DNA from: Lytechinus pictus
Taxonomy: Eukaryota
Reading direction: 5' to 3'
NCBI RefSeq assembly: GCF_037042905.1
Contig: NC_087245.1
Span: forward strand, 10,852,001-10,916,000
DNA: 64,000 nt
The first letter of the stretch is position 1. Each line of letters starts with the position of its first letter. A program made the translations under genes and the position numbers. The notes beneath the pieces were generated by a model that ran no database searches, had not been told where the DNA came from, and saw nothing but the letters and a program-made list of their open reading frames with translations. Shown in pieces: positions 11,294 to 58,102 of the stretch.

Positions 11294-12319
11294 CTGGACA
11301 TCATACTGTACAGCAGTACCAATTGACACAGTGAAAAACGATTATTTCATGAGGCTACAAAGTTTCTTTTCCAAAATATGAATGGAAAACAAATAAAATG
11401 TTGCCAATGCCTAACTTTCCATTTTCAGAAAGACACATTCCAGTTACGTGGGATGTTATTAAGTTTTTTTTATCCTACATCCAAATCAAGAGCATTTTCA
11501 TCATTTCAATTCATGAGTATGAATAAAGCTGTTGTTCATGTTTTATTGTTTTGAAACTTATGATAAACAAATACAATTCGTAATCTTGCCTTTAAATCTA
11601 ATTTTATACAATTTCGTGAGATATTACATCATTTTATCAACAAATATTTTGTTTATTTTAACGGACGAATAAAATATGTAAAATTTATTTGAAATGCGTT
11701 TCACATGGCGCATCACGTTGACTTTTTCCGAATTATTCTGGGAATTGCACGGGTAAGGAAATGGAAATAGAATGCTTGTAATAAATGAGTAAATAAGAAT
11801 ATAAATCACACGATATAAGGACCAACAATTACCACTAATATATGTTTTTAACAAACAATGATTTATAATAATTTTGTCATCTGAGACACGCGCACGTATA
11901 CTTCATCAGTATATGATTTGGCCTCGATAAAATATAAGTTTAAGAAATTCAGTTTATTCTCAGCTGATTATAATCAAACTTATTTATACCTTTATCCTCT
12001 CATCTCCCTCACACGCTCAAACAGCCAGCACACTCTCACACACGAACAAACACACGCTCACCCACACCATAATACATGCACTTACTCACGCGCGGATATA
12101 CACATCCTTATATTTGGACCTCGCGTATACATCCATCTCCCATCCAATTAGAAATGATTTTATCACCGAGCATTAGCATCTTTCATCTAATTACCTATGA
12201 TTTTTTTTTCAAATTTCAGTTGATGAATTTCAGTTATAGATTATGCAATTACACCATTCAATCACGGCCACTCCGAAACACATTCACCCACATCAATGTC
12301 CTTATCCAGGCAATTAATA

Positions 12320-12325
12320 TTTATT
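12320..12325 (-). promoter_or_regulatory. Candidate polyadenylation signal (AATAAA) of gene A
   Basis: tttatt on + strand ~78 nt past the stop codon. The AT-rich context makes a chance match possible. Confidence 0.4.
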
Positions 12326-12402
12326 AGGAAATGTTATGTTACGTACTTCGAAACAATTAACCAATAATTCAAAGAAATTATTTCATGTCAAGCGCAAACA
12401 TT

Positions 12403-12435
12403 TTAACTGTTCTTCTGCGGGATCTTCACAGTCAC
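12403..12435 (-). CDS. Gene A terminal coding exon 14 ([10 protein letters not shown])
   Basis: 33 nt, tag|GTG...AGT TAA. Confidence 0.93.
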   Translation of the reverse strand: MTVKIPQKNS

Positions 12436-15400
12436 CTAAAGAAAAGAGAGGAAACAAAACAGTAATGGTAATTAGATTACAATGGAAGACGATTCAGAGA
12501 ATAGGTGAACGTCATCAGTGTCTTTATACTGGTTGACGATGATGTTCATTTTTTTTTTCATCCGTGAAGGGGGGGGGGGGGGGTAATCATTAATTCACTT
12601 TAACATAAATTGCATTACATCCTATATTCTGATGATATGACAGGAATTACTACATCTCTCTGCGGGTGATGAAGATTTTTACTTCTTTTTTAATAAGGTT
12701 TGTATCGCGTCGTAGGTGCTTACATTCTGAAAAAAATACTTTACGTCGAATGGCAAACGGGAATAAGGACGAATTTTTAAACTGTAAACCTAAAAATTGA
12801 TGATCAACAATAAAATGATAATGGATCTCACTTACAGTTTTGACTTCCGTGTAGGCTTCCAGACCATACTCGCCTAGTTCTCGACCAGTACCAGACATCT
12901 TGTACCCTCCAAAGGGAGCCATAGTGCTTACTACGTTGTAGCAATTGATCCTTTTGAAAAATGAAAAAATAAAAATGAAATTTATCGGCAAATTTTACTT
13001 TGTACTTATATTATAGATTTTACATCCCTGGAAATGTAAAGAAATTACTTGGAATAAACACTTGCGTATAACAGATTCATCATAAAGATTATCTTCTTCA
13101 CAGAATTAATATTCGGCATTATCATCTCCAAACAACTAAACGAAAATTAACAAACGGCGGTAACAAAGTCATAGGAAGCAACAAAATATATATATCGGTA
13201 ACTTTTCACTTTCTTTCTATCTGTTCGCTTTTCATTTGTACCTTGTGTTATTTATTTGTTCATGTTGTTTTTCAGATCAAAAGCTCATCTAGGTTTTTGC
13301 CCTATCATGGTGTTACATGAATAAAACTAAACTGAAAAGCAAATTTCAAAGACTACATTTTGGACTATGTAATAAAATAAGATTACAAAACATTAATACA
13401 TTTGGTGAGCTTTTTGTTGAGTAATGTTCAAGTCATTATTTTTTGTGGCAATAGGTTTCTGCATGTGCAGCACCAATTTATTCATGTTATTGATAAGAAT
13501 TGTATAGCATCGAAACTCATTTACTTTGTCGGTGATTTAAACCGATTGGAAAAAAAAAACTCCTAGCCATTCTTGATTGATATGCAGTGCATGTTTATGA
13601 AAAATAATCAGAAATGTTTACTAGTCGAATACCAAAGTAGACATGCGTGGATCTCTCAAGAAAACAGAGATATCTTTAATTTCATTTCCAATTTATTAAG
13701 AGCTATGATAGATATTCAGATACATGTAATACCAATCTAATATTTCCAGGAAATGAGGATCTCAAAACGAGATAAAAATCAAAGTAAAGTCACTTTCCTG
13801 ATCCGATTTCAATAGTTTCACTTGTGCTAGTAAGTCTGAGGGCGTATATATTCTGTATACACATCGCCCCCTTATATATTTGTTGCACATTCAGTATAGT
13901 TCAATACAAATCATAATCATATCATAATGTTAGGATAAACTGGAAGCACTATCGTCATCAAAATGTCCTTAGTTTTCCTAGACGTTACAACCTGATACTG
14001 TAGGACCATATTGATATATGGAAGTCACGATCTTTAAGATCAAATTTAGTTTTCCAGGATAATTAACTGGAGGAGTGCATACATGAAAAGAAATTTATTT
14101 CTGATATCCGACTCTTTACGTCCTCAAGTATTATATGATATATCTGTTTTGGTAAGGTTCGTGAATGAAATAATAACTCGTGGATCAAATTTTATTTGTC
14201 TTGATATCAATTTTAAGTAGGTAAAAGATGAAGCACCAAGACTGGTTTACCCTATCAAAGCTGAAGGCTCTATCTCACAAAAGAGGATAAGCTGGATCAT
14301 ATTCCATGGGCACCTATGATCAATTTAAAATCTAGAGAGTGCGAGGATTAAACCCATCCCTAGAGTTTGAGTTTAGTTTGTAAACGTAAACTCAAGCAAA
14401 ACCTGCTATACGTTTGCGTCGTTCTATAACTTAAAAATGATTGAACTATCTGTTAGCAATCACGATGTTTGATCGAAAAACGTAATTTTATCACGATTTA
14501 ACTTAGTGGAGTTGGAAGATAAAATAAATGAAAGGAAAATTACTTGGTCTTCAGTTTAGCACTTAAATATACTAACAAACCTCTAAAACATTTTTTTTTA
14601 TTTTCACACAGCTAAATCAGTTTGGTTAACAATTAACATGTTATTTTGTATCAAATGTGATATAGATTTAAATGTAACTCATTTTTGTGTCTTAAAGATG
14701 GTATGATCATATCGAGTTAAATTATCCCATATCGTAATACCTACGAGAACTTAAACACATTCGAAAACGCCCTTTTTTAAATGATCAGTTTTGTCGACCG
14801 TTACAGTGTCCAGAGATTTTCAATTTTTTTATTGAGTTGTCAATGCTATTAAAATAATAACTGGAAATCAAACTAAAATGTCCCAAATAATAATCTAATG
14901 TAAGTATATGAAAATGATAGTCTTTGCCAGGTCTTAACGGTATCTTCTTGTAACGACTGATTCATTTAATTTCCCACTTGGTGAGAAAAGATATATATCG
15001 TATTTAAAACGCTTCATTACAATTATTGGCATCACTATAAAACAACTATGTGGTTCTAAAAAAAAAATCCCCAAATAATACTCTCCTAAGCTGGTATTGC
15101 CTTTCGCATAAGCAAAAATAACCCAGAAATCAATCATCATAATGCATGAACTTGAGCATAAACCTTATCTAGCTATTTTGCCTTAGGCCACCGGTATTTG
15201 TCGCGCATGGGTTGTTCATGAATGAGGTTTTATGACGAGATTTTGTTTCAGTATATGATGTCATCCTTTATTACATTCTTCCGGTTTAGGGAACATCCTC
15301 AATACAAAGATCTAAATCTGATTGGTTTGGATGAAAAATGAGATTGATATATTCCCAATTCCGCAAAATTCAAACATGGCTCCCATCTATCCCTTACGAT

Positions 15401-18400
15401 TACACGGACAATACCAACAATAAGAAAATACACAATTTCATTAACGGCATGATTGAGAAAGAATAAGATTACAGGCTCTTTATGAATTGTCAATGTTGCG
15501 GCGAGATTTCATTTCCTAAATTGAATGATCGTGGGAGGATCCCGCTTCGCATGTAAAAGACCAGTTGGAGCGAGTGATTTCAGACGTGAAAGAGATGTTC
15601 AGTGACTCGATTTCCTTCTTCATCAGTGTTCTATAAAAAATAAAACCTTGACTGGTCTTGAAATTGTTCAACGCCCCGCTCCCTGATATTTTAACCTTAC
15701 GATGGTTACATTAAATTAGATACTTGTTTTATCCGGGAAATATAAGAATATTACAAAATAGAGCCGGGCTGTAATTACTGTAATAGTTAAGGATCTCTCA
15801 TTGCATCAACAACCCATCTCCATTATGTTCATGGTTAAATTAATTGCCTGATCTCGCGAGTAATAATTGCGAGATATCTTTCATACACACAGAACCATCG
15901 AGAGTATTGGACGCTATTCGTGCATAACCTAATTTGTTTTTAGAATATCTCCATTCTTCTAAGATCGTGGATCCTGATAATAAGGGTGACAACAATAAAG
16001 ATGACATCTCCATTGAATCTTATCAAAATTTGCTATCTCGAGCGGATATGAAACGTTGCCGATACTAAGGTCGTAAATTATTTCTTTCCCGAATATTGAT
16101 CATATCTATTTTTTTTTCTTTTGTTTTGAAATGAGATTACGCTTTTTAAGGGGATGCTTGTTTAAAAATTCATAGACAGAAGTAATCAATGAGCCGTGCA
16201 CTACAGTACAAGAAATGGAAATCGTTCAGAATTTATCATCTTTATCACTATCATGATTATCATTAACCGTTCATGGTTATGACAACGGCGATTGAAAAAT
16301 ATGTAAGTGTAATACATGATTATACCACTGGGCTCAATATTTCCATTACCATCATTAGAATACAAAGACTGCAATTTGTAGGAATTACTCCTCGTAATTT
16401 GATCATAATTATATATGTGGGAGAAAATCCATTTTGACATCGTGTATAGGCTAAGTTGATACACAACCTTAAAAATAATACAGTACCACTTATGATGAGG
16501 AGATGGATATCATCTTCATTCGTTCTAAATGATATCTCGCATACTGCAATGAAATTATGAATGAGTAAAACACCCGCGTAGCTTTAAAATATTGGGGTTT
16601 GAAGGGGTGTGCCTGCGTCTGGCAGTATTTGAACGCGCGAAGCGCTCTCTAATGTAATAAAGGGAAACAGTGAAGCTAGAGAGAGGGTGTCCCCAATTCC
16701 TCACGAATCTCCATTGAATTTATTAAAAGATTTTTTAAAGACTGTAAGCTCGCTAAAATGGAGAGAAGATTGTGACTTGAAGGTCATAGTCTTTCTCATC
16801 CACAAAAGAAGCGCATGCAGAAGCTTTGGAGTTTATCAAGTTTACAGAGGAGGGAGAATGGACCATAGTATACAGTTCTGAGTTCTGGTTGATTCCGAAA
16901 CTTGACTGTGTTGCCATCGAGGCTCAAAAACGTGAAAGCCTTAATTTTAATCAGGAAAAGACTAACTGTCGTACTATCATTTCTAACCTTAATTTTGACA
17001 CATGATCTACGCCCACTTTGACTATCTCCCATTTAGCCTCACTCCATATGGTATAAATTCTAGTACGTCTACAACCAGTTCGTCTAAATGTCATTGTCAT
17101 AATAGTCCAGTTACCATCTTTTATAATTTCCAATTAGGCATACTCATTTCGTCAAATATCCCATGGTCTAATACCATGTGTAGTCCATTCGGCAAATTGC
17201 CATTACGTCCAATGCCATTTTCGTCCAATGACCATGTCGTCTAATCCCACTCGGGATTTGGTCCAATAGCAATTTATTGCATCATACAATATTAATTGCA
17301 CTCTTATGCACTGTGGCTGAGTGTTTGTTGTGTGCGTGCATGCGGGGGTGGGGGGGGGGGGGGGGCCACCGCCGACCAGGCAGGGAAACGAGAAAACATA
17401 AACTTAATGTATATTTGAAATCCCCAATGTTTTTTTTCAAAGCAATCCAGTAAAATGTAATCAGATATTGTAACTTTACTATTTGCTCTTTATCAATTAC
17501 TTTTCTTTCACTTTCGGAAAGGGGGAGTATTCGATGTTTTTTTTAAATTGAAATAAGAACTAGTCAAATTGGGCAAAGTAATTATCATTCAATACTTAAT
17601 ATTTCGGAGAGCTGCATTTTTTGGTTAAGGCACCGTTTCGCGCATGGAACCAGTCAAATATCTAATTCAAATGCAGATATTAGGAAAAGAATATATAAAT
17701 TAAAATCCATAACGCATCAAAAGATGTAGAGTATGTTTCGAAAGAATTTGCTTGCTGCTTATTACATCGGTTCTTCCCGAATGGTAATGTAGTAAATTGA
17801 TGCCGCCAAACCTATTGACTTGGTGGCTACCCACAAATTACGATTCAAGAATCGCATTTAGGAACTTTCCCCCGCTGCATTTATCCCCCTTAATCCTAAT
17901 ATGTAATTTAAGAAGCAGGCCCTTGTGATTTGACTGAAATTCAATGGTCTCTCATGATTATATTTTTTTGGTGGTTTTTCAGCTGGGATTGCGAGAGGAA
18001 GCTTTTCTATGAATGGATATCGACCTCCAAAGAAGGTTCTAGTAAACGCCACAAGAAATTAGGAAACTGAAAAGGGCGTTTTGCTATTTCCCCAGAATGT
18101 CACCAATTATTTTAGGGATCCCTTGAGATTTACAAGCTATGAAATAATCATCGAATAACCGACAATACCAACATGAAATTATGAATTAATAAGAATATAA
18201 GAAAGCGTGGGCTTTGTTAAAAGCGATATGATAAATATTGTTTATTTTTAACATTTGCTTTTATCATTATGTGATATTTTAGTAATTCAACTTGTCTTTT
18301 GCAGACCAGCTGAGCAAAATTCTTGATTAAAAATACTCTCAGGGAATTGATAGTGGGCTAGTGCAATAGTCTATTTTGTTTATTTATATCATTCTGGGAT

Positions 18401-21400
18401 ATAATAATGATATTAATAATACCAATATTAATTATAATAACAATAATAGTAATAATAATTATAATAATAATAATAGTAATAATAACAATAAAAATAATAA
18501 AAGTAATAATAACAATAATAATAATAATACATACATACATTCATAGGATTTATATAGCGTCTTTCCATTTTGATTTAATGCTCAAGGCTCTTAGAAAAGA
18601 GAGAAAAAAACCCTAAAACCTAAAACGATGGGCAATGCTTTGTAAAAGTTACATCAGTAAAATAGATTCAGATATCAATCGAAGTACACGTCAATTCGAA
18701 ATTTAATACATACCCCAAAATTCATCTGTTCAAAATTGCCTGAAGTGATTATGCATGTATGTTACCAATATCACATACTTATAGAACACTGTTAGTTAAT
18801 TAAAAGGCGAGTTCACCCTAACATCAAAATGATTGTAATAAAACCCAAAATTTTGTTTAAAATATAAGTAAATTATTGGCGAAAATGCATCAATGAATGA
18901 CTTGGTTATGGATCTCTATTTTGTTAATATTATGACGTCACATATTACCATCAGTACAAGCTCATTTATCGTATGCTATAAATTTTATTCATATGGACCT
19001 TGTAATAGGCCTACACGATATTTACAAATAGCCAGTGTCAGGAATCTTTTCCTTCACATTTTCCTTTAACAGTTAGATAACTTTGAAATAGATAATGCGT
19101 ATTGTTTTAATGACTGTAATCTTAAGATATCGAAAGCGATCGATAAAAGTCATTGACGTGACTCTCGAGAATTGCATCTATTACCAAAATATCACGATGG
19201 AACGAAATTGCCCTGAAAAGAACGAAATAATTCATAATCCGTTAAGAGAGAAATCCCCAATGTCTCATTAGATAGAGTTCCGGGTTTGATATCAAATTAT
19301 AAACAATCTAAAAATGCAAAGGAAAGAGTAAAACAATCAATCAAAAAGCAAAACAAAAATGAATAAAATCACCGCACCTGAATATGATAGGGAACAATAG
19401 GCATGTATTGGTACAATGGTACTCTCGGCAAACTTTCTATTAATTTGTTTTCCCAAAATAATTCAATTGAAAATGTATTTTTAAAAAAATACTACAATTG
19501 AATAAATTCATGAAGCAATATTGGCATAAAATGCTTAATTGCATGTTTTCATTGGATATTGACTTTCTACGAGGCTAAATTGACAGAGAGAGAGAGAGTT
19601 ACTAATCTATTGAAATTTTACTTTAAAAATGAAAGTATTATCAAGAAGACACGAGTATATTTACATACAAAACTAAAATGAAATCACTGGTGGCACACGA
19701 ATATCATGCGTAGAAAAATTGTCAATGGAGAGCTACTGCCCGGATCTATTTCATTCCCAATATAAGAAGAAAAGATGATATAATGACTGTCAAATCCTAA
19801 AAAATAGAACAAAAAGATTCAAATGAAAAGAAATCGGGTTAGACATGAAAGCGAGGGAAATGAATAGGATTATTTCAAGATGTAAAAAGGATTCTTTAGA
19901 ATGAGATCTTCCAGGAAACCTTTCTTATTTTAGCCGCTCCCTGATAGCCTCTAGATGATATTCATTGTTTCAAAGATTTTAAGCCAATTCTAAGAAGAAG
20001 ATTTAGATATCAGTCGCATCAACAATCCCGACAAAAGAACTCATCGAGGAAAACAATCTAATCATATCTGAATTGAAAGAAGACCCCGCCTGAGCCAGAT
20101 TTTTTTACAAGAATATAAGCGTTTATAAATATTTTAGTCCATTAGTGTATCATATCTATGGTCATTGACAACAAAATTCAGATTTTCTTTACTAAAAGAG
20201 GATTATGAACGAATGGATAATTGGGTCAAGATTAGTTTTAGAGAACCAAAGGACCAGGGCCCGTATTCCATAAACGAGATAAGCATGCTTAAGTCAAAAA
20301 TCTAAGCATTTTGTCTTATTTTCTGTCTAAGACAAAATTCTAAGCCAAAACGCATATTCCATAAAGAATTGGCTAAGAATTTTGTCTTAGAATTTGGCTA
20401 AGAGGTTTTGCGCGACTAAGACAGATATTGGATGAATGGCTAAGTAACTTTTCTTAAAACTGCAGAGTCTGTATTTCATAAATACAACATGGCTAAGAAT
20501 TTAGCCCTAACTTTAAGACAGTTGTGAGTTGTCTTAATTGTTTTAAGACAACATGGTTTAAATCCAACAAATCATGGCCAAATTTTTTTTTTAATTTATA
20601 CCTATATTGCATTTCGAGCTACTTCCTCAGTTTTTAACCGATTTTCATGAAATTTGGAACACACATTGGTCTTAAGGTAAGGAGGTGTAAGAATTTTTTT
20701 TTTGCTTTTTCAGAAATTGTGTTGCCATGGTAACAGTATATTATGGCCAAAATTTAAAATTTAAATTACTTCATCAGTTTTCTACCAATTCTCATGAAAG
20801 TTGGCTCACACATTGGATTTGAGGAAAAGATGTGCAAGACACAATTTTGCATGTGTCGGAAATTGTGTTGCCATGGTAACAGTATATTATGGCAAAAATT
20901 ATGTATAAATCTTGCTATTCCAACTACTTCCTCAGTTTTTAACCAATTCTCATGAAATGTGGCACAAACATTAGTCTTGATGTGAAGATGTGCAAAACAT
21001 ATTTTATGCCTATATAAAAAAATTGCGTTGCCATGGTAACAGCATATTAAATAACGAAAATTAGGTGAAAAATTTGTGGTTTTAACAAGTTCATAATATT
21101 TCAACCACTTCTCATGATGTTTGCCACAGACATAAGCATTGAGGTAAAGATGTGCAAGACACATTTTCGCATGTGTCGGAAATTGTGTTGCCATGGTAAC
21201 GGTATATTAGGGCAAAAATTATGTAAAAATCTTGCAGTTCCAACGACTTCTTCAGTTTTTAATCAATTCTCATGAAATGTGGCACAAACGTTAGTCTTGA
21301 TGTGAAGATGTGCAAAGTATATTTTATGCCTTTACAAAAAATTGCGTTGCCATGGCAACAAATAGAATAACAAAAACTAGATGAAAATCTTGTAATTTGA

Positions 21401-21925
21401 ATATTACTTTATCAGTTTTCAACTGGTCAATTCTCCTAAAATGTTGGCGCACACAATAGTCTTGAGTTGAAGATGTCTAAGATACTTTTGCCTGTATCAG
21501 AATTCGTGTTGCTATGGTAACAACATATTATATTTATAAAGAAATTAGGTGAAAATCTTGTGGTTTGAATCCCTTTATTAGTTTTACCAATTCTTATAAA
21601 AGTTGGCTCACACATTGATTTTGAGGTGTAGATCTGCAAGACATATTTTTGAAAATTTGTTGCCATGGTAACAGCATATCAGATCAATAAATGTGTAAAC
21701 AGCATGATGTGTATTGAACTACTTCTTCATTTTATGACATTGGCCTATATGTCCATGAAATGTAGGTTTTGAGCTAAAATAATCTGCAAGACACATTTTC
21801 TCATTCATCAAAATATGTGTTTGTATGATAACTACATGTATACGCCAAAAAAGATTAAGACAATGGTCAATGCTAACTTTTGTTTGGCTACATAGAGAAG
21901 TACATGTAGCTGAGGGCTTAGTTCT

Positions 21926-21960
<35 letters not shown>

Positions 21961-24900
21961 GGGGGGGGGGGCTAGACCTCAAGATTTAGAACTACAGCCC
22001 CTAGTTTAGATCTAAGCCTAGATCAAGATCCTTTAGTCCTAGAAATAATCCAATGCTAGATCCCTAGCCTACTTCCTTTCTCAGGCCTAACGTTAGATGA
22101 GTAAGAGTAGAACTAGACTAGATCTAGCCTACATTTACTATTTTTAGATCTAGAATCTACATTGAGATAGAGTCTACAAGTCTCTAGATCTAGACCTATA
22201 GTATTACTATGACCCTATGTACACCTAGATTGGTATAGTTCTACTTCTAGATCTAGATAGGGTCTAACTTTTAGTCTAAGTGAGTAAGTCATTTAGTCTA
22301 GATCTAGGCCTAGGTTAGAGATTTCTAGATCAAACAGTAGACTAGATCAGCCAGTCCTAACGTTAGGGCCAACGGATAGGCTAGAAATAGAATCTAGAAT
22401 GAATAGAAGAAAGCACAGGCTTGGCCGCCTAGGCCCTAGATCTAAATTCTTATATACATCTAGGCCCTAGTCTAGACTGAGCTGTTGCCAGTGTTGGTCT
22501 AGGTTTAGGCCTGTTTTCTAGTCCTGGAAACCAAGATCTAAACAAGTCCTCAAAATGTATAAAATAAAAACTCCAAACAGATGGACCTAAAGCAGGAGTA
22601 GATCTAGATAGATGTCTAGACTACTACTAGGACTAGATCTAACTTTAGTTTAGGCATAGTTGGCAAGCAATGCATAGCGATAGATCTAACGTTAGCACTG
22701 TTGACAGGAATAACCGTCGTTTCTGGGGATTTATTTAAAAGTTTCTGACATTTACTGTCATATCACATTGGTGAAACTATAGGCTAACGTAACGTTAGAC
22801 TGTTTAGTGTCGTACTCGTAATAGCGGAACAACCAAAATACAGTCGGAGACTGAAGCTTTTGGTCTAAGTCAGATCTATTCTAGACCTACATGTAGATCT
22901 AGATAGATCTATCCCTGTCTTAAGGCTAAGCCAGGCTAAGTCCTGCATGTTCTAGGCCTAGACCAATGCTAATATAGGCCTAGGTCTATCGTTAGATCTA
23001 GGCCTATGTAGCTTCAGTCTCAGTTGCTCCACTACGGCACTAGACTAACAAAGTTACGTTTTGCTTCAGCCTTCAGGAAAGTAAAAAGTAAAGACAATTA
23101 ATGTTCAATTCTCCTCCAAACAGACGGATATTAGTTGTAGATCTTGGGCCTAGGCTAGATCTAGGCCTAATGTTAGACCCAAGACTAGGCTCAAAAGTTA
23201 CAAATGTTTTCCCTTAGACCCTAGGTCTACTTCAACTGAAGTAGAATAAAGATGTCGAGAGGAATCTATTCCATTTAGATTTTGACAAACAATACATGAA
23301 AAGTAATGAATGGGACTGATACATAAAAAACTGTGCGAGTCACTCGGTTTGGGATTGAAATGTTTTGGTAATTAACAAAATATAGATAATCTGAATAAAA
23401 AATTCTTACCATATATGGGTGATGAATGCTCTTCTTTTACTACAATAGTTGTAATTAGTTTCAATAAAATCAAAATTGTTAAGAAAAAACAACTTCAATG
23501 ACATTTTTGCTATTTTGTTGCAGTCACCCCTGCAGCAGTTTAGAAGGTCATAGAATTTGACTTTGAGACTTTGGCTTAGCCATATCGTCTGACTTGAGAC
23601 AAATGTCTTAAAGTTTATAGAATATCGTTAGGGAAGATTTCTTAGACAAGCAAAATGCTAAGACAAATTGCTAAGACTTAAGCAAAAAGCTTATCTCGTT
23701 TATGGAATACGGGCCCAGGTTATCTGTCTATATATCATTTTCTGTGGCTAATTAAGAAAATATGTGGCAATATAAAAATCTTAAATGTATCCCTAATTGT
23801 AGTATCTCAGCTACGGTTTTATACTTGACAAATATAATCACAACTAGATTTTAATTCGTCATGTGGACGAATTAGGTGGTCTGTCCTTATTCTCGCCATC
23901 ATGATCACTATCACCATGTTCATGCAGATTAATATGATCATCATGATGACAACTGAATGTTCATTATGGATAAAATACTTGTGAAAGACGGGAGATGATA
24001 AAGCACTGTGAAAAAGGTCTCTTTTATACATTATATGACAATACATGTGATATGAAAAAAAGTAATTATAATCTGTTTTATTTTGCTAAATTTTAACTTT
24101 TATACCTTTTAATTGTCATAAAGGATCATGTACGAGGTGGTAAAAAGAAAAAAGAAAAAAAAATCATTTTGTTCACCCCAGGACTCGAACCTGGGACCCC
24201 AAGGACGCTAGTCAAGTGCGTTATCCATTCAGCCACGATATTCCCCATAGAGATTACACGTAAGCAAATTTGAGAATTACAAATCCAATTTTGCAAGCGA
24301 AAAACGGAGGAAACTATAACGAAAGCTTAGAATCTCAGCAACAACATACTAAAAGCTCAGAGATAACTGACGAGAAAAAATGGAGATATGGCTCACGAAG
24401 TAGAGGAATGTTGAATCTAGTTTTGAGAAAAAGTCATGTCCCATAGAGATTACACGCAAAATGAGTAAAAATGACATGCCTTTATTATTTGCAATTTTTT
24501 AGGATGATCCGTTCATTAAAATGAAAAATAAAGGAATGACTCAGAAAGAGTAAGACCTAAGCTACATCATATCCAACGTTGGGCGAGAATTAACCAATAT
24601 TCACGAAGTTAGAGCCACTAATTTACATAATTATTATGACGTCATAACACGCAAAATGGATATTTTGACTTCCGACGCCATTTTGATGACGTCATAATAT
24701 ACGTTGGGGTCCAATGAGACATGAAATCATTTGTATGATTCATACTCTATCGAAATATGAAAAGAAAATTGGGGGTCCCCGTTCGTTCTGAAGAGCTACA
24801 GTGAATTTTTAATCGGCATGTTTTTGCCCACATAGAGCGTATGGAAAGAGCTCGCGCGCACGCGTGCTGCAAACTTTAATGGGTGCTCATTCCCTCATTA

Positions 24901-39900: not shown

Positions 39901-42900
39901 TCTCACTTAGGATTCTTTTTTTTTACTTTTTAGCCCTATTTTCTTTGTTATATTTTTCCGATTCTATTTGTGAACTTCTTGCATTCTCCAGAGTGAAACT
40001 ATTACCATGGAGACATTTTCGGATAAATTGTCAGTGGTCATAGAATCAATGCCAGCTCAAGATAATAACACTTTTTTTTAATGAGGTCCAGGATGTCGGT
40101 AATTTCCGTAATGCTGCCAAAAACATGTTCTTCTGGTAATATGGTATTCATGTCATAACTTCCCTATAGAAGAGAACGTATTTCCTCTGGGAATATGACC
40201 TACATTATTGTCCTCTCCACCCATATGTACATACGATTACAGAAGACTTCAATGTGTTTAAAGGAGAGACAAACCCTTACCGGAATGATCTGCCCGCAGA
40301 CGCCTACTGGTTCATGCCTCGTATATGTCATGAAATCTCCATCTAAATATATGTAGAAATGATAAATGAAAAAAATTATTATCACAATGAGCGACAAATA
40401 AAAGGAAGTGACTCTGATAAACCCCACATTGTCTCCCTTTGAAGAGATGGTATCTGATAACTTTAAATCATGATTTTTTTTATCAATATAATATATAAAT
40501 ATAAATCGGTGCACAAAAGGGCGGAAATCTGTCTCCAAAGGTAGGGGGGACCAGGGGCTGGAAAATTTGACAAGCAAATTAAAAAAAGGCTATCACCCCA
40601 AATGTAAGGTCATTTCGACCAAAATAAATTTGACAAGCAAAAAAAAAAAGTTTTCACCCAATAAGTAAGGTCATCTCGTCCAAAAATACATGTTTTATTT
40701 CAATTTCATAAAAGACCGAAAATAGTAGGGGACATGTGATATTGTGTCCCCCTACTTTTTTGGGTAGGGGGGACACTTCCCCCCTAGGATTTCCGCCCAT
40801 GGGTGCACATTAACCATGTTCATTACCGATACGCCAATACCACATGCAGGGGTAAGGTTTATTATCATGATTATGATCGTGGCATATATTCACAAAAGAC
40901 CCACGCATGAAAAAAAGGGGGGCATGCATATATCACATGCACCATTGTTACTTTATTTGAAATTTGGACTCTCAGAGTGGGTTGTAAGCATACATCGGGA
41001 AGTTGATGTCAATAGTGTTTTTGTGATTTCCGTATACAGTAGCGGATCGATCCCCCTTGTGCTCCCTGCAGACAGAGTCACGCAAGCAGTGCATTGATCT
41101 GCAGGAGGGTGGGGGGGGGGGTTAAGAGGCAGGATGTTGCCTTTCATCGCCATTGGGTCAAACCAACTGGCCAAACCCAAATCTTAGCTATATAAAAGTT
41201 AGATCCGCCACTGGTGTAGAATTATTGGACCCTGGTAATATCATTGGAAACTTACCAACAGGAATTGTTTTTCCTTCTATTTTGTCAGCCCATCCAGCAT
41301 AATATCTGGTGTGAGGAAGTAAGAATATAAATCATCATCAACAACAAAAAAATGAAACACAAGAACACTCTTCAAAATGCTCTTTTCGAAGTGGAAATGA
41401 GGTAAGGAAAAGAAGGAACACATTACCCACACCAAAGATTTGGGTCAAACTTCATACTTTCCTGAAAAAAAATGTGTTGCAGAATCTTATATCCACGGTG
41501 GGGCGTGTCATCTCCTCAATCATCAATTATCAGTTTCGTGTTTATAACATTTAAAGGTTTGAGGGAAACTTCGGAAGTAACTTTAGAGTATATTGCATTA
41601 TCAAAATTTTACACGGCAATTAAACCTTCAACTCTTCTTTTACTCCAATCTATTCATTTTGAGTCCCCAATACCAATGTCAATTTGACAATTTGCCATGC
41701 TTACACAGAAGATATGAAGAATGATGTGTTTAAAAGCTTCGTAAATTAATTGCCATTTATCATGTCCCTGGATTACCCTTGAGTTACTTTCGATGCATTT
41801 ATCATCCAAAGTGATTCGAACACTGAATGTAGTTCATGATCAACATGATTAGCATCTGGAAGTTTCCTTTTTACAATGGAAGAGAAATATACAACCTGGT
41901 ATAATTTGGCAATGAAATTTGTTGTGCAAAGTAGGAAGTTGATTTTTTTCCCACATCCAGCTATTAAAAATATCCAATAGTGGTTGCACATGTATAACAT
42001 AAAGCTATATTCAGTGGCGTACCATGGGTCACGGCATTGGGGGGGGGGGGGGCACCAGCAAAAATGTTGAGTTACTTAGTGAGCGCGCGAAGCGCGCTGT
42101 TGCCAGTTATACTGACCTAATACAAACATTTAAAGGACAGTGCCGTTAAACAAATATGTATCTCACTGACCAAATAATGCGAGCGCGAAGCGCGAGCTGA
42201 ACATTTTTGATATCCAGACCTAAAAAGAGACATAATAGGCAAATTTTTGAAATCATGATACGTACCTGTCTCGCTAAACAAACAATGCGAGCGCGAAGCG
42301 CGAGCTGAAATTTTTGTATATATTGACCCCAAACAATGACATTTTTAAGGACTATTTTTTAGGAATCCATTAAGAGTATACATATATCACCATAGTCATC
42401 TAATGCGAGTGCCAAGTGCTTGCTGATTTTGTTAGAATTACATCTAAACACATTAAGAAATTGTAATCATGATTATCATACGCATCTCACTAATCAAATA
42501 TTGCGAGCGCAAAGCGCGAGCTAAAAATTCAGGAAATTCAGACGTGAAGAGGGCATTCTAAGGCTTGTTTAGAGGAATTCACTAAGACATTACGTATTTC
42601 ACTAACCAAACGATACATGCGAGCGCGAAGCGGGAGCTGAATTTCTTATATTCAGATCAGAAAAAGGGACATTTTAAGGACTGATTTTAGGAATTCATGA
42701 AGAGCAGACATATCTCCCCAATCCACTAATGCAAACGTAAGCACGGACAGGAAATGTTTTATATTAAGACATTCTGAGCGAATTATGTTTCATAAGGTTA
42801 TGAAAAAAAATTTATTATGTAATATAACATAATTATAATATAATATAGCATTATAATGAACAATAATTTCTTCTTTCCCCCTACGTTTCTCTTCCTTTCT

Positions 42901-43057
42901 CCTTTCCTCCGTTTTTTTTTGCCAGCCGATGGGGGGAGGGGACACGTGCCCCCCATGTCCCCCGTAGTTACGCCACTGGCTCTATTCATCTAGAATATCA
43001 AGTTAAAGCTATCGGTGGTCGGAAAGAAAGAATAAAAAAGAGCCAACTGTTTATTTG

Positions 43058-43089
<32 letters not shown>

Positions 43090-45094
43090 TTGGGGGGGGG
43101 GGGGGGCAATGCTTGTGTGAGAGAACAGTTAAGGTGACACAAACCTGAGTGTTGCTACAGACCCTGGGACATCAATGGTGAAGGAATCTTGGTATGGTTT
43201 ACCGTTATCCAGAGTCTCTAGGCTCTAACCAAATAAAGTACAAAAAAAAATGAAAACCCGCTATCATGGTAATATAGTTACAGAAAATCATTTCAATTCA
43301 GAATCAATACTTGCAGATCTGCATTCACAATAAAATGGGTTTTAACCCTAAATAAACTGGGCTATTTCGATGCCTAAAAAGACGGAGGGGGACTGATTCA
43401 GCCCCCCCCCCCTTATGATCTCGGCCGTCGATCGCGCGATCGCGCCGAAAATTGGCACACGCGTTACCCATGGCATAATTTACAAAACTACAAGATCAAA
43501 TTCTGCGAAAAATCTCATTGCTAATCAATGATGTTAATTTATGCGTAAAATCAAAAGTTTGCTCTACTCAACTAAATAATGCCCCTGAAATTTTAATCTA
43601 TGGTACACAGACACTTTATATGAATCTGATCAAATCTACTTTAAAAAAATTTGAAAATCACATTTTTTTTCTTGTGTATTTTATTGTATTTTAAATTTCT
43701 TATGTATTTCTCTGTTTTTCGACTTTCTTTTTTTCATTGTTTTTTCAATGGAAATTGTCGGGGACTTTATTTTGACCATATATAAGATGGAATTAATTGA
43801 TTTTAATCAGTAAAAGGAAAAATAATGATACATTTATGAATTTTGGCTAAAAACACCATTTGCATTGGATTTGTACACAAATTCACACTTTTTGGCAATT
43901 TTGGGACTGCATTCACTTACGAAATGTTGCGTAATTTCAAAATCGCGTACCCGGGGTCAAAAGTTGCGCGAGACTTGAATGTAAAAAGTCAGTGAGCGAC
44001 GCGGTCAAAAAATTTCGCGCAGAGGATTTATCACGAAAAATGTCGAGGGGGGGGGGGGCTAAATCAGCCCCCCAGTCTTCTTGGGGTTAAGAAATAAATG
44101 CTTTTATTTCGATTTATGCTTTCGGCTCCTCTGAACTTTTTGCATTCGACATTATCCCTGTTTGACTATCCCCTTTCCCCGTACCCCGCCACCATTGCCT
44201 CCGCGGTACACAAATATAATGTCTTCAGTTCTGTGCTTGAATAGGCCTATTTCTTGGTTGTTTGATTGTTACATAATAAATCAAGATAATGCACAAATTA
44301 TGCAAAATTAAAATGGAAATAATAACTTAGTATGAAGTACTTTTAAAAGATAAAGACTGGACACTTTTCAGAGCCATTGATACAAAGGCTTTATTCTTCT
44401 TTAATGCTTTGAGTAATCTGTTAGAGTCGGGGTTTGAATTTACTCACGGCTAGATATGCTGCGTCCCTCTCCATTAAATCAGCCAATCTGTTGAGGAGTT
44501 TACCCCTATGGGATGCATTGGCTGTACGCCATGGGGATCCAAGCCGGAAAGCTTCATTGGCTGCAGCATAGGCAATATCTACATCAGCCTGAGGAAAAAG
44601 AAAGAAAGAAAAACAGAAATCAGGGCACGTTTCATAAAACTTGTAAAAAATTGCAATAACAGTTAAAAACAAATGAAATCATTCAATATGATTTGCTGAT
44701 AGTAAACTTGTTATGGAAATTGTGTATTTTGTTCTTATTATTGTGGGGGGGGGGAGTAGTACGGTAAAGTAGTATAAAGAGCAGCACTACTACTACTACT
44801 ACTAATACTACTACCAAAACAAATGAAATCATTCAATATGATTTGCTGATAGTAAACTTGTTATGGAAATTGTGCATTTTGTTCTTATTATTGTGGGGGG
44901 GGGAGTAGTACCGTAAAGTAGTATAAAGAGCAGCATTACTTCTACTACTACTAATACTACTACCACTACTACTACTACTAGAAGTAGTAGAAGTAGTAGT
45001 AGTAGTAGTAGTGGTAGTAGTAGTAGCAGCAGCAGCAGCAAAAGTAGTATGGATGAATGATATTAATAAGATGAATTAGTAGAAGAAGAAGGAG

Positions 45095-45157
<63 letters not shown>

Positions 45158-48100
45158 CTGTTAGGGTAGAAGAATCTAAATAAATATACCTTGTCAGCCT
45201 CGGATACCTCGGCAATCACTTCCTCTGTGGCGGGGTTAATGGTAGGGAATGTTTTACCACTGACCGAGTTCACCCATTCATTGTTGATAAAGAGCTATAT
45301 AGAAAGAAACAAATGATTAGAGCATAAAAACCTTAAAAACATAAAATTAACAATAACCACTTTCCTTTGGTGCAAATATATTGATCATATAGGTCAATTC
45401 ACGTGTGATGCTATGACAAACCAGAACTGAATAAAGAATAGATACTTCATAACTCGATAATGCTGTAGTGTGGTTGTGGTAGTATAGTGGTGGATGCTTG
45501 ATCTTATAACATTTATGTGACATGGATCTTATATAGGCCCTATTATTATGATTAATACCATCATAATTTCATTATCATTATTATTTCCGTCGTTACTTTG
45601 ATTGACATGATAATCATCTACATCATGAGCATCGTCATCATCGTCGTCGTCGCCGCCGTCAACAGCCACGACAAAAAGGCTATATAGGTTGACAGAATAA
45701 ACGAGATCATGGCTATATAGAGATGTATTTCGTGAGGAAGGTTGAGCTCTAATCTAACGAAAAAAGTGTTTTATTAATAAATGATTAAAAAAACCTAGAA
45801 TAATCCACTTCCATTATTTGAGCAGATTGATAGTTATCTTTTAGAAATATATGCTGGTGTATGTGGTTTCGACGATAATTCATTGTACCATTCTTCACTG
45901 TCAATCTCAGTGATAAGGAGAAGCAAGGTATTATGGTAATTCAAACAAATAGCAAGGAAGTGGCAGGAAAGGTATCATTAAATAATATTGTCTTTAAAAA
46001 TCATCAATCCATCCGGATGATATAAAATAGTATACACAACTAGGAAAGTCTGATTACATTAACACTAGGTTAAAGGATCAAGGAGCACAAATCCTGTGCT
46101 AAGCGCATAGTTATACTGACTGCTATTTCAGTTAAAAACAAAAACAAAGAACGATCCTCTATAAAAGTAAATATAAACCCAATTTCTATCAATAAAACCA
46201 AATTGACATGACAACTTTATCCATCAGTCAAATTTTGAGATTTTTAGTAAAACTGCAAATGTGTTCCGCTTCCAGTTTCAATACTGGATTCAGAATACCA
46301 GTAAAATTATCTTTGGTCGGACCTCAGGCTTAGGGGACCAAACAATAATAGATAAGACCTGATTTATGTCGAATGATAAAATATGCACCATGCAGCTCCA
46401 TTCTCCTGACTTGATCCTCGTGCTGACTGACACCAATCTAAATTTAGTTCAAATAATTACAATGACGACTGTCTATACATGTCTAGTAGAATTTGTATGA
46501 TTATTCCATATTCAGATTCGGGTGCTGGCATGATCCGCTGATGAGGTGTAATACTCAAATATGGTTGTTATTGTTGTAAACATTTTAACTTTGTTTTATC
46601 TAAACTGATGAATAACTTGTTATTCTGAAAAGATTTATTCTGGACCCTGTTAGACTACGAGTAAATTTGGGAAATATTCAAATTCCTGTATAATGTTGAA
46701 AACCTCGACTAGGAACATGGTAAGGCAGAAACAGATTCTAAAGCAGATTCTGTCAAGTTCGGGTATAAAATATGACCATCAAAATATAACCCCGTGACCT
46801 TGGTTCCAGCGTCGTCATGCTTTTACTACTAAATTTAGAACATTATCTTGAATCATGTCACAGAATCATGATCAAGAGCGCGGTTGTACATGTTTTGCTA
46901 CGGAAACGTCGTTTGAACATACTGAAGGTGCTTATGATAAACTTATCTTATTTTTTTCTTGTTTCAATTGAGTTTCCAAGTTGGTACAATGTCAACAAAA
47001 ATTGTCAAAATAGTCAATGTGTCTGTGAATATGTGTCTAACCTAAAAAGGAGGACAAGATTAAACAAATCATTAATTAGAAACTACGACTTTTTGTTAGG
47101 CCAACCATTATTTTAATCGGATACCAGACATAATATATTCACCATCAGATTGGTTATTTTGACCAATACTTCTTTAACCCATATAAGATAAATTGAAGAT
47201 ACCAGTCTTGAATTGATATCTCGAGGAAAGTTAATGTAAAGGCAAAAACTAGATTTAAAAAGGAAATGACAGTAACTGAAGTGATAAGCAGAAAGGGACA
47301 TAAAAATATACATGCCCGTTTGATTCTCAGTCCAAAAATGGAGTACTATATTTTAACATTACAGGTCAAACTTGGAACTGCAGGCAAGCAGTAAGGATTT
47401 TATTTCGTTACTCTCACGAAATTCCTTTTTTTAATGAAACATTTTTTTTACATACATGTGAGCTACTTTTATCAGTGTAAATTTTGATTTTTACTTCACA
47501 AACTTTCTAAAATTTTTGACCTGTTCAAGTTATCAAAATTCATGGACGGGATATGAATTTCTTTCCCCTTTGGGTCTAGTGGAATAAGTCTATAATAAAT
47601 TGGCGGATTAATCTATGTCACATTGGTGGATACTTGGTAAAAACGTCTAAAATATCGTCAAACAAGGCTTTACTCTTTTTATTCATTTTATACGACTCGT
47701 CAGCATATATTGGTCAATCAAAATTTAGGACATCTTTTGAAGACAGTACGGTCATTAATGACATGATTGACACCGCCTTCTTGAAAGACGATATTTTTTT
47801 CATAAAACACTATAAGGACTGCTATGTAATATTTACACAAGTGAAACGCGTTTTTTTTTTTCAAATTGGACAGTACTAACCTTTGAGAGTTCTTGATTAC
47901 TTAGCTATATTGATAAGCCATTCTTCATCAAACAGGCACTTTGGACTTGTTATTCACAATAAAGAATATTATGCTTAGCAAGCATGATTTACACGTTCGA
48001 GGTCAGTTCATTTTTTTCTTATAAGATTATGGGGTGTTTTTTTATGTTGGCATATATTGAGTTTGAGGTCCGCCTTAAATTTGGGAATGGGCAGATGAAA

Positions 48101-51100: not shown

Positions 51101-51818
51101 AATGATATCGCATTTACCCATTTCCCTTCTTTTCCTCCTTTTTTTGGAGGCCATCGCCCCCATCGCCCCCACCGGAACGACAGTGCCCCTGGGTGCCTTT
51201 TCAACATTCATTGTGATTATGCATTCAAAACGAATAAACCTTACAAAATATATTTCCTACCTTGACATCTGTAAAATCATTCCATATTAGGCCTATATCT
51301 ATCTATTTTCTAAATATGAGTTGATATTCTTTTTTTTTTCTTTTCTTTTTTGGCCCTCGAACCTCAAACCGCAATTACATAAAAAAGCTGGAAAAATACT
51401 TCCTGAACTGCTAGTTTATCATGGTAAATGAAATTGTTCCGTGAATGGATATGAAGGAAATACGAATAATAATCAATTAGGTCAAACGAAGATTTCACTT
51501 AATCTATAATTATGACACTTTCATATTCATCACAATATTCTTCCCAAAAAAATGGCAGAGCAAAAACAAACGAGAAATGTTTTACTCAACACCCATCCTC
51601 ACAAGTCTATGTAGCCGTAGGCTTTCACTTTTTTCCTACAGAACTGTCATGATTTATTGTTTAGTATATATTACACATACCTTATTGTATATAATGTCTG
51701 GATTCTTCTGTGGCGCTGGAATAGCAGCCACTGAATACCAAGCCGTCCTCATCAACGTCTTACTCGCATTGTAACGGGCGGATGCCGTCGCTGAGATCAC
51801 TTTCCCAACAGAAAACAT
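12403..51818 (-). CDS. ALDH2: Gene A: complete 14-exon ALDH1/ALDH2-family aldehyde dehydrogenase (mitochondrial ALDH2-like, 525 aa; ALDH2 vs ALDH1A orthology not settled)
   Basis: Hand-spliced exons 51818-51681, 45294-45190, 44588-44448, 43224-43145, 41305-41256, 40342-40281, 32909-32781, 31932-31819, 31059-30957, 27807-27623, 26990-26826, 26167-26010, 12950-12836, 12435-12403. All introns GT-AG, phases consistent, sum 1578 nt. Motifs present: [19 protein letters not shown] (Glu268), [10 protein letters not shown] (catalytic Cys302), [16 protein letters not shown]-terminal PQKNS*. Confidence 0.95.
12836..12950 (-). CDS. Gene A exon 13 ([38 protein letters not shown])
   Basis: 115 nt, aag|G ATC...ACT|gtaagt; completes the TG|G Trp codon across a 13,059-nt intron. 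Confidence 0.95.
18400..18540. repeat. (AAT)n microsatellite
   Basis: Seen directly. Confidence 0.9.
20258..23715. mobile_element. 3.46-kb non-autonomous PIF/Harbinger-like DNA element in gene A intron 12
   Basis: Perfect 27-bp TIR GGCCCGTATTCCATAAACGAGATAAGC; CAG TSD at 20255-20257 and 23716-23718; CTAAG/CTTAG-rich subterminal regions; no transposase ORF. Confidence 0.85.
20570..21800. repeat. ~160-bp tandem repeat array (about 7 units), each with a GTTGCCATGGYAAC-type palindrome
   Basis: Motif starts at 20721, 20867, 21027, 21187, 21346, 21508, 21659. Alternate units are more similar to each other (320-bp higher-order period). Confidence 0.9.
24170..24240 (-). pseudogene. tRNA-like sequence (tRNA pseudogene or SINE head)
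   Basis: A box TGGCTGAATGG; perfect T-arm CCAGG-TTCGAGT-CCTGG; acceptor and anticodon stems do not pair. Confidence 0.6.
26010..26167 (-). CDS. Gene A exon 12 ([53 protein letters not shown])
   Basis: 158 nt, cag|ATC...TG|gtaagt. Confidence 0.95.
26826..26990 (-). CDS. Gene A exon 11 ([55 protein letters not shown])
   Basis: 165 nt, cag|ATC...GAG|gtatcg. Confidence 0.95.
27623..27807 (-). CDS. Gene A exon 10 ([61 protein letters not shown])
   Basis: 185 nt, cag|TT...CAG|gtatga; catalytic Cys exon. Confidence 0.95.
28340..30498 (+). mobile_element. 5'-truncated, internally deleted CR1/L2-group LINE, antisense within gene A intron 9
   Basis: Begins with the APE endonuclease tail (DLSDHFPIF at 28342), then jumps at ~28718 into an open RT frame. 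The 3' UTR has a CT-rich tract and a stem-loop (~30380-30416) and ends AATAAA(TGAAT)n at 30475-30498. Confidence 0.9.
28865..30130 (+). CDS. Reverse transcriptase (ORF2 C-terminal part) of the LINE; frame is open from ~28718
   Basis: [59 protein letters not shown] motifs. Confidence 0.9.
   Translation: MYKRIYKFLSKNNLLVSEQFGFRKKHSTSLSILNITDYISRKFDEGKFCCGVFMDLSKAFDTIDHHILLEKLYYYGIRGVSLEWFSSYLFERKQYVMVDGVASNFSYINTGVPQGSVLGPLLFLLYINDIIHTSNILKFSLFADDTAVISSHKDINILICNINVELEKLSEWYICNKLFLNADKTHYIIFHSKQKKFSCQVPPVYIKNDILKKSDIVEFLGIKLHESLNWSHHISHVCSKISRGVGIITHFRNTLPKHTLLTIYNSIILPHINYCNMIWGNSYKTYLYKIHILQKRAVRIITHSNYMTPSTPLFCDLKCLPVFDLVTVTNLIFMFNFQKKELPSIFNDMFKTNSFYHSYETRNKSKFLIPFARTSLNQHTIRFQGVHDWNLLPYVVKNSSTLTRFKCLCKQFLFKRLMCTE
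30957..31059 (-). CDS. Gene A exon 9 ([34 protein letters not shown])
   Basis: 103 nt, tag|ATC...C|gtaagc; LELGGKSP general-base motif. Confidence 0.95.
31218..31470. mobile_element. Degenerate hAT-like MITE
   Basis: CAGTGGCGGATCTA...TAGATCCAACCAGG ends; poly-C/poly-G interior; no clear TSD. Confidence 0.45.
31819..31932 (-). CDS. Gene A exon 8 ([38 protein letters not shown])
   Basis: 114 nt, cag|GCT...GAG|gtaaga; NAD-binding FTGSTE. Confidence 0.95.
32503..32765. mobile_element. Harbinger-like MITE ending ~15 nt from the exon 7 donor
   Basis: ~33-bp imperfect TIR GGGCCCCGTCTTACAGAAAGTTGCGATTGATCC / GGATCAATCGTAACTCTTTGTAAGATGGGGCTC. Confidence 0.7.
32781..32909 (-). CDS. Gene A exon 7 ([43 protein letters not shown])
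   Basis: 129 nt, aag|TGG...GAG|gtaata. Confidence 0.95.
33226..33296. repeat. 35-bp tandem duplication
   Basis: TCTAATGGAAAATCACACAGCTGATTTAAWTTGTC x2. Confidence 0.85.
35228..35468 (-). mobile_element. SINE-like insertion with 7SL/Alu-domain-like head, B box and (CA)n tail, plus a duplicated 3' end
   Basis: Minus strand from 35402: ACTGGGCGTTGTGGCGTGTGCCTGTAATCCAAGCTATGTGGGGAAG..GAGGTTCGAGCCC..TTTCGGATGGTGACGTTAAAGGTCGGTCCC..AAACTCAAATA(CA)n. 35405-35468 repeats the last ~55 nt. Confidence 0.75.
36241..36687. mobile_element. MITE at the centre of the foldback element
   Basis: 22-bp perfect TIR CCGTGTTTACACTTAATCGGCA; TA on both flanks (alternatively a 3-bp ATT TSD); internal GCTCGCGGTTCAGAACC repeats in both orientations. 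Confidence 0.85.
40281..40342 (-). CDS. Gene A exon 6 ([21 protein letters not shown])
   Basis: 62 nt, tag|AT...CCG|gtaagg. Confidence 0.95.
40516..40801. mobile_element. hAT-type MITE
   Basis: GGGCGGAAATC / GATTTCCGCCCATG ends; 8-bp TSD GGTGCACA on both sides. Confidence 0.75.
41037..41213. mobile_element. Degenerate hAT-like MITE
   Basis: CAGTAGCGGATC...GATCCGCCACTG ends; TSD not conserved. Confidence 0.5.
41256..41305 (-). CDS. Gene A exon 5 ([16 protein letters not shown])
   Basis: 50 nt, cag|A...G|gtaagt; YYAGWADK motif. Confidence 0.93.
42012..42978. mobile_element. hAT-type non-autonomous element with GCGAGCGCGAAGCGCGAGC repeats (copy 1)
   Basis: CAGTGGCGTA...TACGCCACTG ends; TSD GCTATATT/GCTCTATT (7/8). 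Confidence 0.85.
43145..43224 (-). CDS. Gene A exon 4 ([27 protein letters not shown])
   Basis: 80 nt, tag|AGC...AG|gtttgt; LETLDNGKP motif. Confidence 0.93.
43346..44086. mobile_element. TTAA-flanked (piggyBac-like) non-autonomous element
   Basis: TTAA|CCC...GGG|TTAA; subterminal inverted GGGGACTGATTCAGCCCC / GGGGCTAAATCAGCCCC. Confidence 0.65.
44448..44588 (-). CDS. Gene A exon 3 ([47 protein letters not shown])
   Basis: 141 nt, cag|GCT...GCC|gtgagt. Confidence 0.95.
44666..44965. repeat. 150-bp direct tandem duplication abutting (CTA)n/(TAG)n microsatellites
   Basis: AAATGAAATCATTCAATATG... at 44671 and 44821; (TAG)n continues to ~45157. Confidence 0.85.
45190..45294 (-). CDS. Gene A exon 2 ([35 protein letters not shown])
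   Basis: 105 nt, tag|CTC...AAG|gtatat; ALDH FINNEW motif. Confidence 0.95.
48502..49121. mobile_element. MITE with a duplicated left end (137-bp period)
   Basis: TIR ACCCCGTCACACT / AGTGTGACGGGGT; left end repeated at 48498 and 48635; GAAT/ATTC/TTCGAA-rich interior. Confidence 0.8.
49226..50725. mobile_element. hAT-type non-autonomous element, same family as 42012-42978 (copy 2, longer)
   Basis: CAGTGGCGTA...TACGCCACTG; perfect 8-bp TSD GTTACATA; collinear with copy 1 plus an internal duplication. Confidence 0.9.
51681..51818 (-). CDS. Gene A coding exon 1 ([46 protein letters not shown]), with putative mitochondrial presequence
   Basis: ATG at 51818, 138 nt, donor AAG|gtatgt. The first ~30 aa are Ser/Thr/Ala/Arg/Lys-rich with no acidic residues. 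AIPAP..NPDI aligns with ALDH2 AVPAP..QPEV. Confidence 0.88.
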
Positions 51819-58069: not shown

Positions 58070-58102
58070 CTATGTATTCTTCTGCGGGATCTTGATTATT
58101 AC
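58070..58102 (-). CDS. Gene B terminal coding exon ([10 protein letters not shown])
   Basis: 33 nt, cag|GTA...ACA TAG. Confidence 0.92.
   Translation of the reverse strand, partial: VIIKIPQKNT

Follow-up and report, generated by a model that had tools for sequence, protein, structure and literature searches.

A tandem ALDH2 duplicate with a putatively rebuilt substrate channel in Lytechinus pictus, a sea urchin

Here, we used sequence comparison, phylogenetics and public sequencing runs to follow up an earlier reading of a 64,000-nucleotide stretch of the Lytechinus pictus genome (the window; NC_087245.1, positions 10,852,001 to 10,916,000 of the forward strand), in which two neighboring aldehyde dehydrogenase genes, gene A and gene B, lie on the minus strand. 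This sequence-only reading had described gene A as an ALDH2-framed enzyme with an ALDH1A (retinaldehyde-type) substrate channel, and had offered two origins for it, either an ALDH2 duplicate with a changed channel or a true ALDH1A ortholog still linked to ALDH2. Our trees and the comparison of channel residues support the first of these: gene A is placed as an ALDH2 paralog, sister to gene B, and its channel appears to have been rebuilt and then kept across the euechinoids sampled. All coordinates are those of the window.

The gene A locus and its neighbor

Gene A (51818-12403, minus strand) consists of 14 coding exons, every one with AG/GT ends, which splice into one stop-free frame encoding a protein of 525 amino acids (aa) identical to L. 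pictus XP_054751537.1 (P0001). Exon 1 (51681..51818) carries the ATG and a putative mitochondrial-type presequence and is followed by exons 2 (45190..45294) and 3 (44448..44588), and by exon 4 (43145..43224) with the codon for Gly124, at the mouth of the channel (43164-43162). Downstream of the short exons 5 (41256..41305) and 6 (40281..40342), exon 7 (32781..32909) encodes Asn169, Phe170, and Trp177, exon 8 (31819..31932) the NAD-binding motif FTGSTE, and exon 9 (30957..31059) the general base Glu268. Exon 10 (27623..27807) contains the codons for Ser292 (27781-27779), Trp296 (27769-27767), Ala301 (27754-27752), the catalytic Cys302 (27751-27749), and Cys303 (27748-27746), and exon 11 (26826..26990) encodes Glu399. 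After exon 12 (26010..26167) comes intron 12 (12951..26009; 13,059 nucleotides [nt]), then exon 13 (12836..12950) with Asn457 and the neck residue Val459 (12931-12929), and finally exon 14 (12403..12435), 33 nt including the stop. Because gene A has 14 exons, the numbers 4 and 13 that had been given to the exons bearing Gly124 and Val459 are right.

The last two exons measure 115 and 33 nt in gene A and gene B alike, which would be the ALDH2-type position of the last intron; a literature search found no vertebrate reference positions in print. Exons 4 to 6 of gene A measure 80, 50, and 62 nt (exons 5 and 6 at 41305-40281). The same interval is presumably divided as 80+112 nt in human ALDH2 and as 130+62 nt in ALDH1A1, in which case both introns would be retained at their positions in the urchin gene; the intron that splits 50 from 62 nt would, on our assumption, match the vertebrate ALDH1A intron-4 position. 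The corresponding stretch of gene B lies beyond the window.

Splicing was checked in four public runs (X1, X3, X21, and X22) over 12300-32100, that is, for exons 8 to 14. The contigs of X1, a run whose library type is not on record, contain all six exon 8-14 joints, each flanked by intron-type ends and one of them spanning the 13,059 nt of intron 12, and the RNA run X21 holds two reads at each of two gene A joints; among the joints listed for X3 and X22, there were none from exons 8 to 14 of gene A. In addition, two transcript-sized Logan proteins (P0067 and P0068) carry the exon-4, exon-10, and exon-13 motifs together in one frame. A newer RefSeq model of gene A, XP_054751537.2, ends after exon 12, which prompted us to consider the 13-kb intron an assembly artifact; the spliced X1 contig rules this out. 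High-copy repeats, among them a 158-bp tandem array (20768-21649), occupy positions 20200-25500 of intron 12, where depth was very high in the runs examined, and may be the cause of the truncation of the newer model. Two other introns hold repetitive or mobile sequence. Intron 9 contains, on the plus strand and hence antisense to gene A, a 477-aa open frame with an RVT_1 domain (28697-30130; 4e-36), a long interspersed nuclear element (LINE)-type insertion, and intron 6 contains long inverted repeats of 23-bp and 49-bp tandem units (33600-39640) that resemble a foldback-type transposon, with arms of up to 560 nt at 96% identity spaced 3 to 5.5 kb apart.

Gene B, the canonical ALDH2 paralog, enters the window with its last five exons (58070..63281, minus strand; 63281-63097, 62140-61976, 61645-61488, 60907-60793, and 58102-58070), which encode the C-terminal part of XP_063951983.1 with 0 mismatches; on the same strand, 6251 nt separate the gene B stop from the gene A ATG downstream of it. 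Records of both genes lie on equally long contigs in Lytechinus variegatus, Strongylocentrotus purpuratus, and both Diadema species, and the two accessions are consecutive in D. antillarum, which suggests, from record metadata and not from DNA, that the tandem pair is old. Gene A is as conserved as gene B, with identities between L. pictus and S. purpuratus of 92% for A and 90% for B, and to Diadema of 83% for A and 85% for B.

Origin of gene A within the ALDH2 clade

Relatives of the two genes were collected in three protein searches, and trees were built on 56 and 33 of the resulting 282 proteins, picked for taxon spread and with echinoderm ALDH1A absent from the rows, after 16 channel-region columns had been taken out. 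The phylogeny that the sequence-only reading had proposed, run here with ALDH1A, ALDH1B1, and ALDH2 rows, puts gene A inside ALDH2: with 56 rows and a mixture model, the A-type sequences form a clade (support 100/99) that joins gene B (98/93) and then starfish ALDH2 (96/95), all within the ALDH2 clade (99/94), and the pairing of A and B is recovered in the 33-row LG+G4 tree (97/99). In approximately unbiased (AU) tests, a grouping of gene A with vertebrate ALDH1B1 was rejected (p=0.003), as was a grouping with ALDH1A (p=0.004, log-likelihood difference 62), the latter with no echinoderm ALDH1A among the rows. Of 15 columns diagnostic for ALDH2 versus ALDH1A, gene A agrees with ALDH2 in nine, with ALDH1A in three, and with neither in three. 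These data argue that gene A is an ALDH2 paralog, sister to gene B, and not an ALDH1A ortholog.

The second origin offered for gene A, as the missing echinoid ALDH1A ortholog or as a mosaic converted from ALDH1A and still linked to ALDH2, could draw on the ALDH1A-like residues G124, N457, and V459 and on exon 4, which is about equally distant from gene B (49%) and from ALDH1A (48%). Beyond the AU test, however, no exon is on average closer to ALDH1A than to other ALDH2 rows, and the mouth helix is one residue shorter (17 versus 18) in four hemichordate ALDH1A rows and, judged by eye, also in three starfish RALDHs, unlike in gene A. Moreover, the S. purpuratus ortholog has been filed as ALDH2_1 in a published tree (PMC5910596). 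We consider this origin very improbable.

The duplication is placed later than the divergence from starfish and earlier than that between Diadema and the camarodonts. No named sequence from a sea cucumber or a cidaroid turned up in any search made. Against 50% cluster representatives, exon 10 has one close relative, a 93% fragment, and the active-site motif, written as a degenerate pattern, had 0 matches in metagenome contigs. Two side observations concern the protein set. One protein, named "Aldehyde dehydrogenase 1A1" (pig) in its source (P0253), groups with ALDH1B1 and was left out of later trees. The hemichordate proteins of the ALDH2 clade come in two sizes, 519-520 aa (P0201 and P0208) and 495 aa (P0234 and P0036), the shorter of which may be without a presequence.

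The substrate channel and candidate functions

Residue numbers in gene A are valid because its phmmer alignment with human ALDH2 is gap-free at offset 25. On this numbering, Gly124 is encoded by exon 4 within TIDVPGS (43179-43159, minus strand) and Val459 by exon 13 within NCYNVV (12946-12929), and the altered active site reads FWNMGQ (27772-27755) continuing into GQACC, with Cys303 kept, all as previously claimed. The channel residues are G124, A127, S292, W296, A301, C303, N457, and V459. The protein belongs to the ALDH superfamily, with an Aldedh domain (PF00171) over residues 53-516 (Pfam, 3e-185), and it keeps the catalytic set of N169, E268, C302, and the NAD-binding E399. Residues 124, 459, and 303 shape the channel, and switching after duplication is known, according to the account in PMC8160307. 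Of the narrow-channel ALDH2 signature (a bulky residue at 124, Phe459, and Cys303), gene A retains only C303; it has the Gly124 and Val/Leu459 of the ALDH1A signature and lacks its Thr/Ile/Val303, as do many invertebrate ALDH1A rows, which likewise have Cys. The claim of a retinaldehyde-type channel therefore stands for G124 and V459, two of the three signature residues, and falls short at C303, which is ALDH2-like, and at W296, which is found in no vertebrate ALDH1A row examined; the label goes too far and is only partly supported, also in view of the mitochondrial look of the protein and of ALDH1B1, which likewise has Val459 and Cys303 and is reported to oxidize retinal poorly. The sequence-only reading mentioned neither the bulk of W296 compared with the usual F/Y, nor V459 with C303 in ALDH1B1, nor the reported lack of aldh1a in sea urchins. 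Gene B, on the other hand, has F292, F296, CCC, D457, and F459 (NCYDIFA), and thus both the Phe459 and the CCC that had been ascribed to it.

All A-type proteins that cover the sites—from L. pictus, L. variegatus, S. purpuratus, two Diadema species, and two Logan proteins—have G124, S292, W296, A301, C303, N457, and V459, and all B-type proteins (7/7) have L124, F292, F296, C301, C303, D457, and F459. Among 316 columns conserved in 21 ALDH2 rows, 13 are altered in all four A rows tested, and a set of 15 channel positions accounts for six of these 13 fixed departures (Fisher p=5e-6, for a partly post hoc list); a stricter channel list gives 2/6 versus 11/310 (p=0.02, from hand-entered counts). 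The B clade has 10 fixed changes, and none falls in the 15-position list. W296 occurs in 13 of 431 parsed proteins, namely, in the 11 that make up all A-type sequences and in two of the other 420, and G124 and V459 occur together in four proteins out of 247 others, of which three are ALDH1A-type and one is a frog ALDH1B1 (P0052). Given that Diadema and Lytechinus have the same fixed channel residues and that the changes cluster in the channel, neofunctionalization of gene A is likely. The same data bear on the possibility that a redundant duplicate has simply drifted under tolerance, with A and B doing the same job in different tissues. The similar stem lengths of A and B in the tree (0.15 and 0.16) and the freedom with which position 124 drifts in ALDH2 would fit it, but drift sits poorly with changes that cluster in the channel and are fixed in all A orthologs, with none there in B, and we regard it as improbable.

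The explanation that we prefer, to which we give about an even chance, is that gene A is a tandem ALDH2 duplicate that encodes a mitochondrial dehydrogenase of bulkier aldehydes with a rebuilt channel. Gene A, as a tandem duplicate of sea urchin ALDH2, keeps the full NAD+-dependent catalytic set; G124, A/S127, S292, A301, and V459 would then widen the mouth and the neck of the channel, and W296 would form a new wall. The product would be imported into mitochondria, where it would complement the detoxifying work of canonical gene B by acting on medium- or long-chain lipid-derived or aromatic aldehydes, with retinal at most one possible substrate. If retinal is not the substrate, its role is possibly tied to an algal diet; the diatom aldehyde decadienal is reported to induce Aldh2 in Oikopleura (PMC6123688). 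As for import, residues 1-30 contain four K/R and no D/E and have a hydrophobic moment of 0.57, compared with 0.68-0.82 in four ALDH2/ALDH1B1 rows and 0.19-0.39, with three D/E, in four ALDH1A rows, so that the protein looks mitochondrial by presequence composition; the full D. antillarum A-type model also has a presequence. An in-frame Met23 (51752-51750, exon 1) near the presequence end is present in gene A of Lytechinus and Strongylocentrotus and absent from gene B; the first ATG of gene A has a purine at -3, and Met23, in a weaker context, has none.

Several observations weigh against this explanation. First, position 124 is L, M, N, T, A, or G within ALDH2 (247 other proteins), and G124 alone is weak evidence because of this variation. 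Second, the side-chain volume summed over 13 channel positions, a crude proxy, is 1932 cubic angstroms for gene A, 2062 for S. purpuratus B, 2138 for macaque ALDH2, and 1933-1998 for four vertebrate ALDH1A rows; these sums favor a rebuilt channel, with gene A near ALDH1A and below ALDH2, but two ALDH1B1 rows come out as open too (1866 and 2015), so that the proxy is no predictor of retinal activity. Third, the AlphaFold model of gene A, with an overall predicted local distance difference test score (pLDDT) of 85, is weak at the neck loop (65 and 47, residues 481-500); with this model, Foldseek scores ALDH1A2, ALDH2, and ALDH1B1 level (template modeling [TM] score 0.91-0.92), so that a fold search cannot separate the subfamilies. 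Fourth, two Diadema models (481 aa) and P0068 are without most or all of the presequence, and because of these ortholog models and the in-frame Met23, a cytosolic form of the product, for example, one that starts at Met23, is possible. Finally, W296 could narrow the inner pocket and hence favor a specific rather than a broad substrate.

Taken further, this last point leads to gene A as a narrower mitochondrial specialist for an aromatic biogenic or an amino-aldehyde, held by W296 together with F170 and W177, much as ALDH1B1 diverged from ALDH2. The fixation of W296 in all 11 A-type sequences and its rarity elsewhere speak for such a pocket. Position 296 may match a pocket tryptophan of plant aminoaldehyde dehydrogenases, but a literature search gave no confirmation of this. 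ALDH1B1, an ALDH2-derived mitochondrial enzyme with N457/V459, is reported in a preprint to have amino-aldehydes as its preferred substrates and to oxidize retinal poorly (PMC13622191); the same source credits E116, D121, D123, and E124 for its amino-aldehyde activity, and of this acidic cluster gene A has only D121. We consider a specialist of this kind possible but rather unlikely.

The channel of gene A also has to be seen against the retinoic acid pathway. S. purpuratus and Apostichopus are reported to have no aldh1a but to retain rar, rxr, and cyp26, and doubt has been cast on ALDH8A1 as a stand-in (PMC8834484; PMC13666137); the absence of aldh1a is thus a statement from the literature and not from the L. 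pictus genome. The loss has been placed in the common ancestor of urchins and sea cucumbers. A 2026 review holds that the substitute enzyme is unidentified and that naming it would settle if retinoic acid serves these animals as an internal signal, and it cites the detection of retinoic acid in an urchin gonad by untargeted metabolomics (PMC13666137). Gene A could be this physiological retinal dehydrogenase; an ALDH2 duplicate would then have taken over, by convergence, what aldh1a did before its loss, on another channel plan (Gly124, Ser292, Trp296, Val459, and Cys303). Besides the reported loss and the gonad metabolite, the uncommon pairing of G124 with V459, found elsewhere mostly in ALDH1A-type proteins, agrees with such a role, as does the Gly at 124 of starfish RALDHA (by eye, supplement of PMC5910596), and a cytosolic form is conceivable in view of Met23 and of the Diadema models that lack a presequence. 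Yet gene A keeps C303 where T, I, or V stands in the vertebrate ALDH1A rows, and none of those rows has W296; the presequence is mitochondrial-looking, with the better start context at the first ATG. Human ALDH1B1 (V459/C303, E124) oxidized all-trans retinal very poorly according to one preprint (PMC13622191); retinal is listed among ALDH1B1 substrates in a review (PMC12630483). The portions of PMC8834484 used here report no retinoic acid role in urchin metamorphosis. Furthermore, the aldh1a loss is placed in an ancestor shared with sea cucumbers, and no sea cucumber sequence was found that would show a duplicate that old and tie the duplication to this loss. On balance, we think it doubtful that retinal is the physiological substrate.

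Nowhere in the literature search was the gene A paralog proposed as a retinal dehydrogenase, with Sobreira 2011, Canestro 2006, and Albalat and Canestro 2009 outside its scope; Sobreira 2011 or its supplement may already describe the gene A channel. In the main text of PMC8834484, as far as it was covered, aldh2 is not mentioned. Gene A is already on record as a gene, and switches of channel type are known as such; what it adds is a testable candidate for a stated open question, in that the gene A paralog is a concrete, directly assayable candidate for the missing sea urchin retinoic acid synthase. If retinal is not a substrate, gene A would still be a clean, conserved case of ALDH2 neofunctionalization, with gene B as a built-in control next door.

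Comparison with known aldehyde dehydrogenases

The closest known counterpart of gene A is S. purpuratus ALDH2_1 (SPU_007284; XP_786787.2), a direct ortholog that is 92% identical over the core, has the same channel residues, and shows no material difference; SPU_007284 is the ALDH2 row named ALDH2_1 in the supplementary tree of PMC5910596, and no comment on its channel was found in the literature examined. The best solved-structure match is human ALDH2 (PDB 5l13 and 1nzx), with 817 bits compared to 783 for ALDH1A2 and 756 for ALDH1A1. Human ALDH2 and gene A are alike in clade, C303, and catalytic residues and probably in the presequence, and they differ along the channel, where the M/L, K, F, F, C, D, and F of ALDH2 are replaced by G124, A127, S292, W296, A301, N457, and V459. 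Vertebrate ALDH1B1 resembles gene A in that it belongs to the ALDH2 clade, is mitochondrial, as gene A is predicted to be, and has N457/V459 and C303, with G124 in one frog copy. It differs in its independent origin, as supported by the AU test, in E292 and F296, and, in mammals, in E124.

ALDH1A1, ALDH1A2, ALDH1A3, and the invertebrate ALDH1A proteins share with gene A a small mouth (G124) and a small neck (V/L459), but they belong to another clade and are cytosolic, without a mitochondrial-type presequence, and their vertebrate rows have T/I/V303 and F/Y296. W296 of gene A is bulkier than the F/Y296 of the vertebrate retinal dehydrogenases, whose family is credited with a large channel volume (about 590 versus 400 cubic angstroms, as given in PMC8160307). 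In the summary of Sobreira et al. 2011 provided by PMC8160307, which is without sea urchins, ALDH1/2 enzymes switched from a narrow to a wide channel in one duplicate via small residues at 124, and it is this postduplication switching that gene A, with its small residue at 124, resembles.

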